Below are positions 1,123 to 21,244 of a stretch of DNA of 64,000 nucleotides, piece after piece. The stretch lies in the IMG/VR virus record IMGVR_UViG_3300005739_000025. One strand, written 5' to 3'. The first letter of the stretch is position 1, and each line of letters begins with the position of its first letter. This DNA is from a virus (lineage: Duplodnaviria > Caudoviricetes). A program made the position numbers and the translations under genes. The notes under the pieces were generated by a model. It was not told where the DNA came from, made no database searches, and saw only the letters and a program-made list of their open reading frames with translations.

Positions 1123-1128
1123 TATTTA
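1123..1128 (-). promoter_or_regulatory. late promoter core TAAATA
   Basis: CTAAATA-8 nt-ATG(1114) on the minus strand. Confidence 0.6.
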
Positions 1129-1587
1129 GCACTTTTTAAAGCATTTTCTATATAAATTTAACAAATCTTCATCAGTAAATTTCATTTGTCTTAGAAAAGT
1201 TTCAATAAATCCTAAATCTTTAGAATTTAAAACTTGAATAACATCCGGGTCATCTTTCTTTTTTCCTAACTCTATCATTTTTTCTAAAATACCTTTTTTT
1301 AACAGAGTTAATTTTGAGTAGTTTGCACTTGTAACTTCTTGTGGTTGTTCATCTTCTACGGTTTCTATATTTGTTTTATTTACTGTTTGCACCGGATCAT
1401 AACCCGGTGGTATATTTACAATAAAGACCTTTAACTCATTACCAATATTTTCATGAAGTATATAACCCTCAAAATTAGGACTATTATAAAATCCTAATTT
1501 TTCAGCCCATAATGGATCAACCTTTATTCTTATCTTCTGTAACTTTTTATTTTCTAAAACATTTTTACAGATATTTAAAAATTTCAT
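1126..1587 (-). CDS. hypothetical late protein with capsid-targeting-like leader (MKFLNICKNVLE)
   Basis: ORF with ATAAATA 5 nt upstream. Confidence 0.55.
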   Translation of the reverse strand: MKFLNICKNVLENKKLQKIRIKVDPLWAEKLGFYNSPNFEGYILHENIGNELKVFIVNIPPGYDPVQTVNKTNIETVEDEQPQEVTSANYSKLTLLKKGILEKMIELGKKKDDPDVIQVLNSKDLGFIETFLRQMKFTDEDLLNLYRKCFKKC

Positions 1588-1633: not shown

Positions 1634-2284
1634 ATGAGTAAAAAGAAACTTCAGCATGCTAATCACAATATAGTTCATACATCAGAAGAAATAGAAGAGT
1701 TAATAACCAAAGGAGCCAAAGCATACGAAAATTATTTAGACGCTTTAGGGTTCGACTGGCGTAATGATCCTAATAGTGCGGATACCCCACATAGGGTAGC
1801 TAAAGCGTTTGTAACAGATCTGGCTATGGGTTGTTATACTGAACCACCAAAAGTGACGGCATTTGATAATGTTGATAGTTATGATGGCATGGTTTGCCAG
1901 AACAATATTAAGGTTGTTTCTTTATGCTCTCATCACCATGCACCTTTTATGGGTGTTGCTCATGTTGCTTATATCCCCTCTAAAAGTGGTAAAGTTATCG
2001 GACTATCGAAACTTAATCGAATTGTTGATTGGTTTGCCCGTCGTCCACAAGTTCAAGAAAATCTCACAATGCAGATTCATCAATATATTGATCAGGTTTG
2101 TGAGAAAAATAATGGGGTTGCAGTACTTATCGAAGCCAATCACACCTGCTGCTCTAATAGAGGTATTAAACATGATTCTACTATGAGAACAGCTAGAATG
2201 TCTGGTTCTTTTTTAGATAATAAAGATCAATCTAGAGCTGAGTTTTATAAGTTTGTAGAGTTTGCTCAAACCTGTAAGGGTTAA
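1634..2284 (+). CDS. folE: GTP cyclohydrolase I (FolE)
   Basis: Motifs [19 protein letters not shown] (Zn Cys/His), [20 protein letters not shown] and [11 protein letters not shown]. Confidence 0.95.
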
Positions 2285-4270: not shown

Positions 4271-4687
4271 TTACTCTTTAACAAGATTTTTTGGCGGCTT
4301 ACCAATTCTAACGTTAATTATACCGTTATAGTAGTTTTCATTTAATAAAACATCTCTACTTATTTGTTCTTTAATTTCCTCGTAGCTTAATTCCCATTTA
4401 GAACCACAAGTCTTTAATATTAAAAACTCAAAATTGTCTTTGCCGCACTTCTTAATGTCTTCATTTAAGTCATTTGAAGAGCCTGTATAAAATTTCCAGT
4501 CTGATTCTTTACTATCAATTCTATTTCTAAGTTTACCCTTTAAGGGTTTTCTTTTAATTTTACGTCTGCACTGTTTTTTACCGATGTAGGTTTTATTATT
4601 TGTAAGATTTTTTATACTGTAAATAAAACCAAAGCAGTCTTCGGTGAAGTCTAACCCATCTTTAATTTTCCAGTGCCCTAAGTCCAC
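4271..4687 (-). CDS. free-standing GIY-YIG family endonuclease-like protein
   Basis: GFIYSIKNLTNNKTYIGKK motif, ESDWKFYTGSS, and C-terminal YYN. Confidence 0.8.
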   Translation of the reverse strand: MDLGHWKIKDGLDFTEDCFGFIYSIKNLTNNKTYIGKKQCRRKIKRKPLKGKLRNRIDSKESDWKFYTGSSNDLNEDIKKCGKDNFEFLILKTCGSKWELSYEEIKEQISRDVLLNENYYNGIINVRIGKPPKNLVKE

Positions 4688-16382: not shown

Positions 16383-17036
16383 ATGGTTACCTTAATTTCA
16401 GTAACAGAACCTAACGAATATCTAAAAAAGGAAGGTATTAAAACAGCTGAAGATTTAGTTGTTTTTGTCGCTAGGGTGTCGAATCCAAAAAATCAATTTA
16501 ACAGTAAAACAGGTCCAAAACTTTTATCCTATCTGATACAACATAAACATTGGAGCCCGTTTGAACATGTTTCTGCTACTTTAGAGATTAAAACTTCTAG
16601 AGCAATTGCAGCTCAACTATTAAGACATAGATCATTTACATTTCAAGAATTTAGTCAGCGCTACTCTTCAACAACTAGTTTAGAAAAATTAGAATGGAGA
16701 GAACAAGGTAAAACAAATAGACAGGTTGGTGATTCAGAAATAACTCTATCTGTTGTAGATCAAGGTATGGTCGATGCTGCGCAAAAAGCTTGTATCAAAA
16801 CATATGAAACCTTAATTGCAAATGGTATAGCTAAAGAATGTGCTAGAATGATTCTACCTCTTAATACCACATCTATAATATACATGACAGGAACGTTGAG
16901 ATCATGGATTCATTATATACAATTAAGAAACACAAAGGATACACAAAAAGAACATAGAGATATAGCTTTTAGCGTTAAGACTATACTTAAGACACAATTT
17001 CCAATAACGTTTGAAGTGTTGAAAGAATTAAAATAG
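16383..17036 (+). CDS. thyX: flavin-dependent thymidylate synthase ThyX
   Basis: HWSPFE, RAIAAQLLRHRSFTFQEFSQRY, ECARMILP. Confidence 0.95.
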   Translation: MVTLISVTEPNEYLKKEGIKTAEDLVVFVARVSNPKNQFNSKTGPKLLSYLIQHKHWSPFEHVSATLEIKTSRAIAAQLLRHRSFTFQEFSQRYSSTTSLEKLEWREQGKTNRQVGDSEITLSVVDQGMVDAAQKACIKTYETLIANGIAKECARMILPLNTTSIIYMTGTLRSWIHYIQLRNTKDTQKEHRDIAFSVKTILKTQFPITFEVLKELK

Positions 17037-17050
17037 ATATATAATAAGTT

Positions 17051-17773
17051 ATGAGCAAAAAGAAAATAGTAGTAACGGTTTCTGGGGGTATGGATAGCGC
17101 GGTACTACTTTATATGGCAGTACAAAAAGTCGGTAAAAATAATGTCTACCCTTTGTTTTTTAATTACAACCAACGTCATATACGAGAGTTGGGATGTGCC
17201 CGGGGGTTAGTAATGAATGTTTTAGATAAAGAACTTAAAGAGATTGACGTTTCTTTTATTCGAGAATTAGCTCCTACTAGCTCACTCACAAATGATGATA
17301 TTGAGACACCAAAAGTGGATGAAGTAATGGGTGAAGCACAACCAAAATCATACGTACCATTTAGAAACTTAATGTTTTTAAGTATCTGTTGCTCATATGC
17401 GGAGAGTGTAGATGCCAGTGAGGTGTGGTATGGTGCAACACAAATAGATAGCTTAGCTGGTTACTGGGATGCGGAAGAAAACTTTGTTAAAAAAGTTAAC
17501 CAAGTGGTAAAGTTAAATAGAGAAAAGAAAATTAAAGTTGTCGCGCCATTGCTCAGTGCAAATAAATCAGATATTGTAATGAAAGGTGTTGAGTTGGGAG
17601 TGCCTTTTGATATGACCTATACCTGTTATTCAGGGGATATGCCCGCAGATGCAACATCTGCGTCTTCCTCTTTAAGAATAAAGGGATTTTTAATGGCAGG
17701 TTATATCGATCCTATGCCCTACAAACAAGATTTAACTGAGATCTGGCAAAAGCATAATTGCAAAATAATATAA
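17051..17773 (+). CDS. queC: QueC-family ATP pyrophosphatase (7-cyano-7-deazaguanine synthase-like) with degenerate Zn site
   Basis: SGGMDS PP-loop, FNYNQRH, SSLT, YVPFRN, APL..NKSDIV, TCY. The zinc ligands read C-x7-D-x2-S-x2-S. Confidence 0.85.
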   Translation: MSKKKIVVTVSGGMDSAVLLYMAVQKVGKNNVYPLFFNYNQRHIRELGCARGLVMNVLDKELKEIDVSFIRELAPTSSLTNDDIETPKVDEVMGEAQPKSYVPFRNLMFLSICCSYAESVDASEVWYGATQIDSLAGYWDAEENFVKKVNQVVKLNREKKIKVVAPLLSANKSDIVMKGVELGVPFDMTYTCYSGDMPADATSASSSLRIKGFLMAGYIDPMPYKQDLTEIWQKHNCKII

Positions 17774-17777
17774 TACT

Positions 17778-18368
17778 ATGGAACGTTCTGAATTACAAAC
17801 AAGACTTAAAAATGAAACTAAAGGTATACATGATCTGGCAGAAAATATGACAGTAATGAAATCTTTTATTGATGGATCATTTAAGCTAAGACATCTTCTA
17901 CAATATTTGATTAATGTAAAGCCTCTTTATGATGTTGTTGAACAAAGATTATTACAACCTTATATTTTAAAAAATTCTGATTTAAAAAGAACCGATAAAA
18001 TACAACAGGATATTGACTCTATAGTAAAACATTTTAGATCTATTGGTGATGATTTGGGACATATGCTTACACCTTTAGAGGTTACAGATCTGTGGGTAGG
18101 TTGGTGTTGGAGTAAACCAAAAGATTTATTGAAGGCCGATCTATATACGCGTTGGCTAGCAGATATGTACGGAGGTCGCATTATGGCTAAAAATATGGGG
18201 ATATTTGCTGAGTCTTTAAAATTTAATGATACAGCTAAAGCTATAGAAGATGTTAGGTCGATAATAGATGAGAAAAATAAAGATGTAGACAATAACGATA
18301 TTATTGAAGAGACCATGAAAGTTTTTGAATATCATACTGATTTGTTTACTATTTTAGAAAATGAATAG
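17778..18368 (+). CDS. hemO: heme oxygenase
   Basis: LKNETKGIHDLAE (proximal His helix), RTDKIQQD, and YTRWLADMYGG (distal helix, compare YTRYLGDLSGG). Confidence 0.85.
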   Translation: MERSELQTRLKNETKGIHDLAENMTVMKSFIDGSFKLRHLLQYLINVKPLYDVVEQRLLQPYILKNSDLKRTDKIQQDIDSIVKHFRSIGDDLGHMLTPLEVTDLWVGWCWSKPKDLLKADLYTRWLADMYGGRIMAKNMGIFAESLKFNDTAKAIEDVRSIIDEKNKDVDNNDIIEETMKVFEYHTDLFTILENE

Positions 18369-19023
18369 TCACTTAATAATACAAAATTATTTTAACGAAC
18401 TATCATCACTCTTTAAAGAGTATTATGGAGATCCAGACGCTAAAACACTACCATTTCAAAAAGATATACACTCTTGGTTAAATTATTTTTATAAATCTCC
18501 TATTTTTAGACATATTCATTTAGAATATTATAAAACAGATAAAATTTGTGTACTCCACTCTAATATATTTCCAAACCCATTAGTAGATTTACCAATTATG
18601 GGGTTTGATCTTATAGCTTTGGGTGATAAAATTTCGGGATTATTCTTCGACTTTACCCCTACGGTAACTGAATCTCATGCTCTAAGACATAGTTTAGAGA
18701 ATTTAAATGAAAGATATAAATCTAAAAAACGCCTATTACCTGAATGGGCAACCTTTTTTAGTGATGATTTTTATTGCGTTACTCCTGAACCTAATGAAAT
18801 GGATAGGATCTTTAAAGATATAAAATTTTATATTAAACATTATCTTGAATTTGGTAGAGGTAAATTAGAAGAATATACATTTAATATAGCTATACAAAAC
18901 GGTTATTGTAAGGGTCAACAAAAAAATGATAAAACATTTAAAGCGCTTTCTGCGGAAATAGGAAGTAAAGATGCTAAAAAATTTCTTACTAAATATCTTT
19001 TTCCGAAAATTGCAATTAAGTAA
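18361..19023 (+). CDS. pcyA: ferredoxin-dependent bilin reductase (PcyA/PcyX family)
   Basis: FRHIHLE, VLHSNIFP..DLPIMGFD, FFDFTP, LPEWATFFS, YCKGQQKNDKT..L...G and YLFP; follows the heme oxygenase with an 8-nt overlap. Confidence 0.85.
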   Translation: MNSHLIIQNYFNELSSLFKEYYGDPDAKTLPFQKDIHSWLNYFYKSPIFRHIHLEYYKTDKICVLHSNIFPNPLVDLPIMGFDLIALGDKISGLFFDFTPTVTESHALRHSLENLNERYKSKKRLLPEWATFFSDDFYCVTPEPNEMDRIFKDIKFYIKHYLEFGRGKLEEYTFNIAIQNGYCKGQQKNDKTFKALSAEIGSKDAKKFLTKYLFPKIAIK

Positions 19024-19043: not shown

Positions 19044-19700
19044 ATGTGTGGTATATATGGAGCAAATGATAGAGAAAAATTTCTTACTCTACAAAAATTA
19101 AATACAGAACGAGGAGATTTTTGCGAAAGTAGCGTATTAGTCACAAAAGACGGGTTTGAAATACATAAGGTTCCAAAAAAAGCTAAAAAAAATTATAAGT
19201 TTCCAAAAAGAAAAAAATTTGATTTGTATCTAGGACACTCCCAGGCCCCAACTTCCACTAAAAGATTATTTAACCCAGAAACATCTCATCCATTTACTGT
19301 TGAAAATTGGGTAGTAGCTCATAATGGAGTATTAACAAATTACAAAGAGCTTGTTAATCAATTTCAAAGACCATACAACAACCCGGTAGATAGCAGTATT
19401 ATACCCTATCTTATGTACAAAATGAGTGAACTTTCATCTAACGAAATAGAAATTATAGTTAATTCGTTAGAGTTTTTAAAAGGTACGTTTGGTGTTTGGA
19501 TACATAACGCATTTACAGGTAACACATTTTTAGCTAAATGTGGGGTAACATTATTTGCAGATATATATGATAATTGTTTTAGCTCAGTAAGTTACAAGTT
19601 TTTTGACCCTTTAGAGGAAGGAACACTATACCAACTAACAAGTGAAGGAATCACTAGTGTCGCAACATTTGATTGTGATAGTCCGTTCTTTACTGTTTAG
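19044..19700 (+). CDS. class II (Ntn) glutamine amidotransferase-like protein
   Basis: N-terminal MCGIYG, GHS, HPF, HNGVLTN, VDS, GTF. Confidence 0.85.
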   Translation: MCGIYGANDREKFLTLQKLNTERGDFCESSVLVTKDGFEIHKVPKKAKKNYKFPKRKKFDLYLGHSQAPTSTKRLFNPETSHPFTVENWVVAHNGVLTNYKELVNQFQRPYNNPVDSSIIPYLMYKMSELSSNEIEIIVNSLEFLKGTFGVWIHNAFTGNTFLAKCGVTLFADIYDNCFSSVSYKFFDPLEEGTLYQLTSEGITSVATFDCDSPFFTV

Positions 19701-20584: not shown

Positions 20585-21244
20585 ATGGATACGGTAATTT
20601 GTAGTTTAACGAGAAATAAGGATAGATCCAATACAATATTATGGAGATCGTTGCAGAAAATAGGCGAGATTAAAATTAATATAGAAGATAACAACACTAA
20701 AAAAGGTTTAAGTCAGTACTATAATGAGTGTATCGAAAAATTTAAAGATAGTGATTGTATAGTTTTCGTTCATGATGATGTTGATATTATTAGTTCTGAT
20801 CTTTTATATCAACTCCGGGAAGGTTTTAAACGTTTTGATGTTATTGGTGTCGCTGGGTGTGTTAATCCTAAAATTTTAGATAGAAATTTATGGCATTGGA
20901 TGGCCGGAGATAGATCAAACTGCCGTGGAATAGCCGGGCACCCATATAGTGATTCTGAATTTTTCGTAACATCTTTCGGTCCTACACCTTCTAGAGTAGT
21001 AATTATAGATGGAGTTTTAATGGCAATTAAAACTAAAAAGATTTACAATTCCGGAATACGATTTGACGAACAGTTTAGATTTCATCATTATGATATAGAT
21101 TTTAGCTTGACCTGTAACACTAAAAAAGCTAAAATAGGGGTCTGGCCAATACTTATAAACCACCAATCACCTGGGCTAAAGGATTTTGACACAACATGGA
21201 ACGAAAGTAATCAAAAATTTATAGACAAATGGAAAAACAAATAG
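20585..21244 (+). CDS. GT-A fold glycosyltransferase (family 2-like)
   Basis: YNECI, FVHDDV (DxD-like), GVAG, IDGVLMA, FHHYDIDFSL, HQSPG. Confidence 0.8.
   Translation: MDTVICSLTRNKDRSNTILWRSLQKIGEIKINIEDNNTKKGLSQYYNECIEKFKDSDCIVFVHDDVDIISSDLLYQLREGFKRFDVIGVAGCVNPKILDRNLWHWMAGDRSNCRGIAGHPYSDSEFFVTSFGPTPSRVVIIDGVLMAIKTKKIYNSGIRFDEQFRFHHYDIDFSLTCNTKKAKIGVWPILINHQSPGLKDFDTTWNESNQKFIDKWKNK

Follow-up and report, generated by a model that had tools for sequence, protein, structure and literature searches.

The Cys4 zinc site, C-x8/9-C-x2-C-x2-C, is treated as a hallmark of QueC, the synthase of 7-cyano-7-deazaguanine (preQ0), and of the QueC-like defence proteins Cap9 and QatC. It is needed in QatC, for which the CxxCxxC motif is termed highly conserved (PMC13639016), whereas for QueC no role has ever been assigned to it. 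Phage QueC homologues occur together with several modified DNAs. In the main text of Cui et al. (2023; PMC10516641), the DNA of Flavobacterium phage immuto_2-6A was measured and contains fdPreQ1, a preQ1 derivative, with full replacement of guanine, and Campylobacter phages with a QueC homologue (QueC*, proposed to make 7-amido-7-deazaguanine, ADG) carry dADG. In that of Hutinet et al. (PMC6884629), a fusion of a Gat domain with QueC yields archaeosine (dG+) in E. coli when combined with DpdA. Here we analyzed a QueC-like gene (17051-17773, plus strand) in a stretch of 64,000 nucleotides, hereafter the window, from the IMG/VR virus record IMGVR_UViG_3300005739_000025. Judged from its sequence, the 240-residue product is a QueC-family PP-loop ATPase that lacks the zinc knuckle and is a probable preQ0 synthase.

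A QueC-family protein without the zinc knuckle

The product matched PF06508 (E 8.5e-50, 169.6 bits; cut-off 22) and passed the cut-off of the TIGR00364 equivalog model (157.9 bits; cut-off 150.3), while it stayed below that of the stricter NF008317 model (112.6 versus 378). The PHROG profiles 1550 and 10428, both long enough to take in fusion proteins, matched as well. The protein is about 29-30% identical to canonical QueCs and shares with them the SGGxDS and YVPxRN motifs. The former, the ATP pyrophosphatase motif of the PP-loop, reads SGGMDS (residues 11-16; 17081-17098, plus strand), and the latter was found intact as YVPFRN in alignments to solved QueCs and homologues. Nine residues were invariant in an alignment of 149 QueC-family sequences, 39 of them without and 110 with the zinc motif (alignment A2), and all nine are kept in the window protein: D15 and S16 of the PP-loop, E46, R105, N106, D140, K172, Y193 and R209. 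The AlphaFold2 model (pLDDT 95.3, pTM 0.92; 90-93 over residues 191-210) had as its top Foldseek matches the QueC structures 3bl5 (E 1e-13, TM score by target 0.83) and 2pg3, and Cap9 (9nto) ranked fourth. These data agree with an earlier reading of the window (the original prediction), in which the PP-loop, YVPFRN and the rest of the fold were considered intact. By sequence, fold and context, the window protein belongs to the QueC family and departs from it in one conserved feature, the Cys4 zinc site. As this site is structural and does not define the catalysis, the protein is placed within the family as a variant.

In place of the Cys4 site, of which only the first cysteine is left, the protein reads C192-x7-D200-x2-S203-x2-S206-x2-R209 (CYSGDMPADATSASSSLR; 17624-17677, plus strand). 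HMMER alignment to 3bl5 and 2pg3 placed D200, S203 and S206 at the positions of the second to fourth zinc cysteines, and together with the homologue alignments this bore out the original reading of the motif residue by residue. Alignment with the QueC-like defence proteins likewise showed that Cap9 keeps its zinc cysteines, three of which are missing from the window protein.

The replacement is widely shared. More than 3,000 relatives were found in a big protein collection, and all of those down to 55% identity have it; in IMG/VR, 308 loci contain a QueC of the motif-less group with an open reading frame. Among 65 full-length IMG/VR genes of the clade, C192, D200, S205, S206, R209, W139 and D140 were invariant, and position 203 was either S or T. 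More than half of the clade genes have a further Cys at position 199. At the serine positions 134, 203, 205 and 206, TCN as well as AGY codons occur among the 65 genes, a mixture that points to long-maintained selection for serine. The dN/dS ratio was 0.06-0.14 (Nei-Gojobori method; unsaturated pairs with dS of 0.15-0.5). In the IQ-TREE phylogeny, the motif-less sequences around the window protein formed one clade (support 100/99) nested among the motif-bearing sequences P0127, P0128, P0131, P0129 and others, suggesting a single loss in this lineage. Further independent losses were found in the clade of P0138, P0189 and P0244, in P0130 and in the QueC of Flavobacterium phage immuto; the latter branches with QueC* of Campylobacter phage CP220, and its loss is therefore independent of that in the window clade. 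The substitutions are thus neither unique to this sequence nor accompanied by a dN/dS near 1, and the motif-less QueC is a selected variant and not a decayed one. One protein was discarded as spurious: P0123 (7727 residues, repetitive and T/V/S/D-rich), a surface-type protein that headed the phmmer results on the strength of 58 weak alignments with residues 188-233.

The original prediction had also regarded the substrate loop as systematically replaced, with GYWDA (residues 137-141; 17459-17473, plus strand) as the counterpart of the canonical GYPDC. This did not hold, as Y-W-D is usual in phage-type QueCs that retain CxxCxxC, and position 141 varies between C, T, G and A across the family and between A, G and S inside the clade. 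What does set the window protein apart from canonical QueC is a C-terminal tail of about 25 residues, along with a dedicated gene for a glutamine amidotransferase (GATase). The tail contains C237 (17759-17761, plus strand), which is invariant in the clade and lies within '..NC(K/R)..'. In A2, this tail cysteine was present in 36 of the 39 motif-less sequences and in 3 of the 110 motif-bearing ones, one of the three being P0127, the nearest zinc-bearing sister. Hence, of the proposal of a selected, Zn-free variant, selection was upheld, while the Zn-free state is a hypothesis: given that C237 tracks motif loss, the site may be remodelled (C192/D200/C237) and not metal-free.

The amidotransferase partner and the deazaguanine pathway

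The GATase gene (19044-19700, plus strand; GATase_6/7) encodes a stand-alone class-II enzyme of the N-terminal nucleophile (Ntn) type with 218 residues, starting with MCG. It has the N-terminal catalytic Cys, the HNG oxyanion motif and the glutamine-binding Asp of this class, and C2, R23-G24, H93-N94-G95 and D116 were invariant in 40 homologues. Its profile matched GlmS (E 1.9e-11) and PurF glutaminase domains, and its best PHROG, phrog_12378, is annotated as 'unknown function'. In 75 of 80 IMG/VR loci the gene lay downstream of QueC on the same strand; the other five contigs end within 1.2 kb, and every untruncated locus has the GATase. The two genes abut in relatives with 58% identity and are 1.27 kb apart in the window. 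On the contig of the zinc-bearing sister P0127 (L137), QueC is likewise accompanied by a GATase, which shares 32% identity (E 8e-24), and by a family 2 glycosyltransferase (GT2), so that the partnership is older than the loss of the knuckle and the set of partners did not change with it. Prediction of a QueC-GATase complex gave a score of 0.30 against a mark of 0.32, which counts neither way on binding.

No megablast match to the locus was obtained among the INPHARED phages, and the phage proteins closest to the window QueC, at 36% identity, came from Vibrio Schizotequatroviruses (KVP40/nt-1 group; TCU-VP03-AIR1). These phages are also T4-like and have QueC followed by a phrog_12378 GATase, with QueF, FolE and QueD nearby; in TCU-VP03-AIR1, the small MCG-starting protein of this PHROG comes next after QueC. 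In contrast to the window protein, their QueC keeps GYWDC and C-x9-C-x2-C-x2-C, and their transglycosylase is of the DpdA2 type (phrog_10773), which is absent from the window virus. Three TCU-VP03-AIR1 proteins were assigned as follows: ORF391 is PTPS/QueD-like with two domains, ORF392, annotated as 'homing endonuclease' (PP712906.1 234484-235158; L004:4225-4899), is GTP cyclohydrolase I (PF01227, E 1.5e-61), and the 'hypothetical' ORF397 is the phrog_12378 Ntn GATase that goes with QueC.

Like canonical QueC, the window protein belongs to a FolE/QueD/QueE/QueF gene set. FolE (GTP cyclohydrolase I), the first step of the 7-deazaguanine pathway, is encoded in the window (1634-2284, plus strand; PF01227, E 3.6e-49) and shares 54% identity with its phage immuto counterpart. 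QueD (PTPS), QueE, QueF and a DpdA3-like gene were present in all three complete relatives and in an 88%-complete one; FolE was found in the three complete relatives and not in the record of the 88%-complete one. In the relatives, QueE, PhoH, QueD and FolE form a contiguous block, and QueD, QueE and PhoH are missing at that spot in the window. Beside the window FolE lies a 153-residue open reading frame (1126-1587, minus strand) whose first ~49 residues are 47% identical to a 336-residue protein of one relative (G001), where it sits between QueD and FolE.

Outside the window, the same record (G000) contains five co-oriented genes (G000:40414-43618; locus L128:2897-6122) in the order 269-residue phrog_19058 protein, Formyl_trans_N, DUF1599-like protein, AAA_28/thymidylate-kinase-like protein and bimodular QueF (QueF_N + QueF). 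The phrog_19058 protein was modelled with a pLDDT of 92, and its top matches in the PDB were solely tRNA-guanine transglycosylases (TGT; Foldseek E ~1e-8, probability 1.00). The same PHROG was found in Campylobacter phage CP220, in Flavobacterium phage immuto_3-5A, whose matching gene was annotated as DpdA by its depositors, and in the relatives G001-G004. The operon is syntenic with immuto35A_64-68, and DpdA, formyltransferase, thymidylate kinase and QueF are 54%, 42%, 32% and 37% identical, respectively. Aligned with the Vibrio phage QueF, the QueF has the motifs ESKSAKLY and RSRC, which we take to be the NADPH and the catalytic Cys motif, as well as QKD and HEFCAE; bimodular QueF with the NADPH motif was present in G000-G004. 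Neither the two DpdA1 profiles (phrog_887, phrog_7068) nor phrog_10773, a putative DpdA2 profile, had a match in G000-G005, although the positive controls worked; DpdA1 and DpdA2 are therefore absent, and the transglycosylase is of the phrog_19058 type. PF01702 (TGT) was negative in this virus and in five relatives, a result discarded as uninformative, as this model also misses the DpdA of JenP1, CP220 and the Vibrio phage. On these grounds, the transglycosylase is classed as TGT-fold DpdA3-like and the formyltransferase as DpdN-like. In the literature searched, DpdA3 and DpdN are named by Cui et al. (2023; PMC10516641) alone, and nothing was found that links pelagimyophages with queuosine. 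In one complete relative (G003), QueF and the DpdA3-like gene occur without a Formyl_trans_N match; this phage may stop at dPreQ1, and the end product may vary among clade members.

Product of the variant enzyme

We consider it probable that the motif-less QueC is a working preQ0 synthase that feeds a formyl-preQ1-type DNA modification, with ammonia derived from the GATase. The intact PP-loop would use ATP to take 7-carboxy-7-deazaguanine through the amide to the nitrile preQ0, a conversion for which canonical QueC spends two ATP, with the D-x2-S/T-x-S-S patch standing in for the CxxCxxC knuckle, and the small Ntn GATase would probably split glutamine and supply the ammonia to QueC. The phage QueF would then convert preQ0 to preQ1, the DpdN-like enzyme would formylate preQ1, and the DpdA3-type transglycosylase would insert the base in the phage DNA. 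By analogy, formyl-preQ1-type, restriction-resistant DNA is predicted for this virus, and some relatives may carry preQ1-type DNA instead. PreQ0 is the most likely product because the conserved QueF needs this nitrile.

The phages immuto provide the closest parallel. Their QueC has lost every zinc cysteine, has a similar ...SASS-x-x-R... patch and accompanies an orthologous operon of DpdA3, formyltransferase, kinase and QueF. It differs in that it is 26% identical to the window protein, has lost the first Cys too and has no adjacent GATase. The QueC of immuto_2-6A, the phage with the measured fdPreQ1, is 100% identical to that of immuto_3-5A and has no Cys in the knuckle region.

Several points weigh against a preQ0 synthase. 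The product assigned to the clade is argued from sequence and from analogy: the data show the altered motif and its conservation, the fold, the partner genes and the presence of the other pathway genes, and from these we infer the product, the use of glutamine, a physical coupling of QueC to the GATase and whether the remodelled site binds metal. In the record itself (148.8 kb, ~70% complete), QueD and QueE were not found with PF01242, PF04055 or tblastn using the proteins of relatives and immuto, and the pathway of this phage is complete only by analogy with its relatives. The host may supply preQ0, so QueF is no proof of what QueC makes. QatC with all four zinc cysteines mutated is non-functional (PMC13639016); loss of the knuckle is therefore not trivially neutral and must be compensated somehow. 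Finally, Gat-QueC fusions are tied to archaeosine as the end product, and not to preQ0, in the main text of Hutinet et al. (PMC6884629).

The latter point leads to a first alternative, in which QueC and GATase would act as a split Gat-QueC and turn preQ0, free or in DNA, into the amidine G+, giving DNA with dG+ as does the fused Gat-QueC of phage 9g. In both cases a class-II GATase goes together with a QueC-like ATPase, and in the viruses studied here the pairing is constant; the fusion acts with DpdA in E. coli, as noted above, and the PHROG profiles 1550 and 10428 could by their length contain fusions. However, the fusions of phages 9g/JenP1 and Crenarchaeota are single polypeptides with an N-terminal Gat that keep CxxCxxC, lead to archaeosine and come without QueF, whereas the window virus has two genes, QueC first, and a QueF. 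The two genes are often 1-3 kb apart, and the gap is interrupted in some lineages by reverse-strand genes. The window QueC is distant in the tree from the JenP1 Gat-QueC domain, and the GATase shares just 23% identity with the Gat domain of JenP1. Moreover, Vibrio phage TCU-VP03-AIR1 has an equal split pair beside QueF. Bimodular QueF with the NADPH motif was found in every fairly complete relative, mostly with the DpdN-like formyltransferase in the immuto-syntenic operon, and G+ would be a dead end there. An archaeosine product thus appears unlikely.

Loss of the knuckle could also halt the reaction at the amide, making the protein a QueC*-like enzyme that stops at ADG. ADG is an intermediate of the QueC reaction, which Nelp and Bandarian reportedly showed in 2015 to pass through this compound. 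Both the CP220 QueC* and the window protein are phage homologues of QueC that act alongside a transglycosylase of the DpdA3 family, which is common to the clade and the Campylobacter phages; the DNA of the latter carries dADG. Yet QueC* keeps the zinc cysteines, and motif loss is therefore no mark of amide formation. It also comes from a phage without QueF and lies on another branch of the tree: the CP220 protein (CPT_0114) is 28% identical to the window QueC and groups with immuto QueC. The conserved QueF is not known to use ADG, the set of partners is the same in the zinc-less clade as in its zinc-bearing sister, and immuto_2-6A combines a Cys-less QueC with a preQ1 derivative according to the main text of Cui et al. 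(PMC10516641). We therefore regard this alternative as improbable. Taken together, the QueF, DpdA3-like and DpdN-like genes, the CxxCxxC of CP220 QueC* and the unchanged partners of the zinc-bearing sister argue against the suggestion in the original prediction that the variant makes a different product or uses a different substrate. As far as sequence can tell, this functional half is probably wrong, and the enzyme probably makes preQ0 like canonical QueC.

Still less probable is a PP-loop ligase outside deazaguanine synthesis, which with the GATase and GT2 would amidate another carboxylate or join base and protein in the manner of Cap9 and QatC. Hutinet et al. (PMC6884629) caution in their main text that a phage QueC occurring as a singleton could be a member of an unrelated subgroup. 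The conserved order QueC-GATase-GT2 inside a replication module is unexplained, and Cap9 ranks fourth among the fold matches, in line with the shared fold and PP-loop chemistry of Cap9/QatC. Against this, the window QueC exceeds the TIGR00364 equivalog cut-off and is no singleton, as the rest of the deazaguanine pathway is found in every fairly complete genome. Cap9 and QatC retain the zinc cysteines (PMC13639016), have protein N-termini as their targets and are encoded in defence operons. The sequence match of Cap9 to the window protein is weak and partial (E 2.4e-10). Neither CD-NTase/Cap10 nor QatA, QatB or QatD was among the neighbours of the window QueC, which are ThyX, hemO, the bilin reductase, the GATase, GT2 and replication genes. 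That the protein is a decaying or inactive remnant, as the loss of three of four metal ligands and the inactive four-Cys mutant of QatC (PMC13639016) could imply, is highly improbable in view of the open frame in more than 300 loci, the omega of 0.06-0.14, the invariant replacement residues with mixed serine codons and the intact catalytic residues and fold.

For the preQ0 synthase that we favour, a more specific model is possible, though we hold it tentatively and think it rather less likely than its contrary. In it, C192, D200, S203/S206 and C237 would make up a rebuilt knuckle, either a staple without metal or a site with few cysteines, and QueC would no longer need the usual Cys4 zinc. Phage QueCs would have undergone such a change on four or more occasions, two of them in phages with DpdA3-type full guanine replacement, and with the GATase it would give a glutamine-dependent, zinc-sparing, two-subunit preQ0 synthase, a form of the enzyme not recognised so far and suited to waters poor in zinc and ammonium. 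The zinc-sparing idea is speculative: FolE (of the PF01227 type) and QueD (PTPS) are both zinc enzymes, so that zinc is still needed elsewhere in the pathway.

Gene neighbourhood and significance

The window derives from a T4-like myovirus, as indicated by its gene content: near the QueC locus are genes of T4 type for a gp43-type polymerase, UvsX, UvsY, gp41 helicase and gp32. The same QueC protein is also present on a 244-kb contig. In the window, queC is the second gene of a tight five-gene run on the plus strand, with gaps of 14, 4, -8 and 20 nt. It is preceded by ThyX (16383-17036; PF02511, E 1.3e-46), 14 nt upstream, and followed by a heme oxygenase (hemO, 17778-18368; PF01126), a ferredoxin-dependent bilin reductase resembling PcyX/PebS (18361-19023; PF05996, E 3.7e-25) and the GATase. 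The cassette of hemO and bilin reductase was confined to the nearest subclade (L007-L010 plus the 227-kb contig of P0032). As queC and the GATase gene abut in relatives, it has been inserted between them. In other lineages, the gap between the two contains unrelated reverse-strand genes of 260-560 residues, and looks like an insertion hot spot.

The GT2 gene (20585-21244, plus strand; Glyco_tranf_2_5, PF13712) follows the GATase in nearly all of the 80 loci, as it does in the zinc-bearing sister. It may be functionally linked, for example in glycosylation of the modified base. In the sister contig, a DUF366 protein (L137:3176-3763) comes after the three genes. A SegE-like GIY-YIG homing endonuclease is encoded amid replication and recombination genes at 4271-4687 (minus strand; PF19835, E 1.4e-30).

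In their main texts, the two papers on phage deazaguanines (PMC6884629; PMC10516641) do not mention the zinc cysteines of QueC, and they list no stand-alone GATase partner. Relative to these texts, the phrog_12378 GATase is a component outside the published phage schemes; it accompanies QueC in aquatic and Vibrio T4-like phages and would render preQ0 synthesis dependent on glutamine. A very large clade and at least three further independent lineages lack the zinc site and apparently still feed a preQ0-dependent DNA modification, and one of the independent lineages sits in a phage with measured modified DNA. They amount to a natural experiment on the purpose of the site. Furthermore, abundant uncultured aquatic T4-like phages are predicted to carry formyl-preQ1-type DNA with fully modified guanines, which would bear on sequencing, on restriction-based methods and on phage-host ecology.

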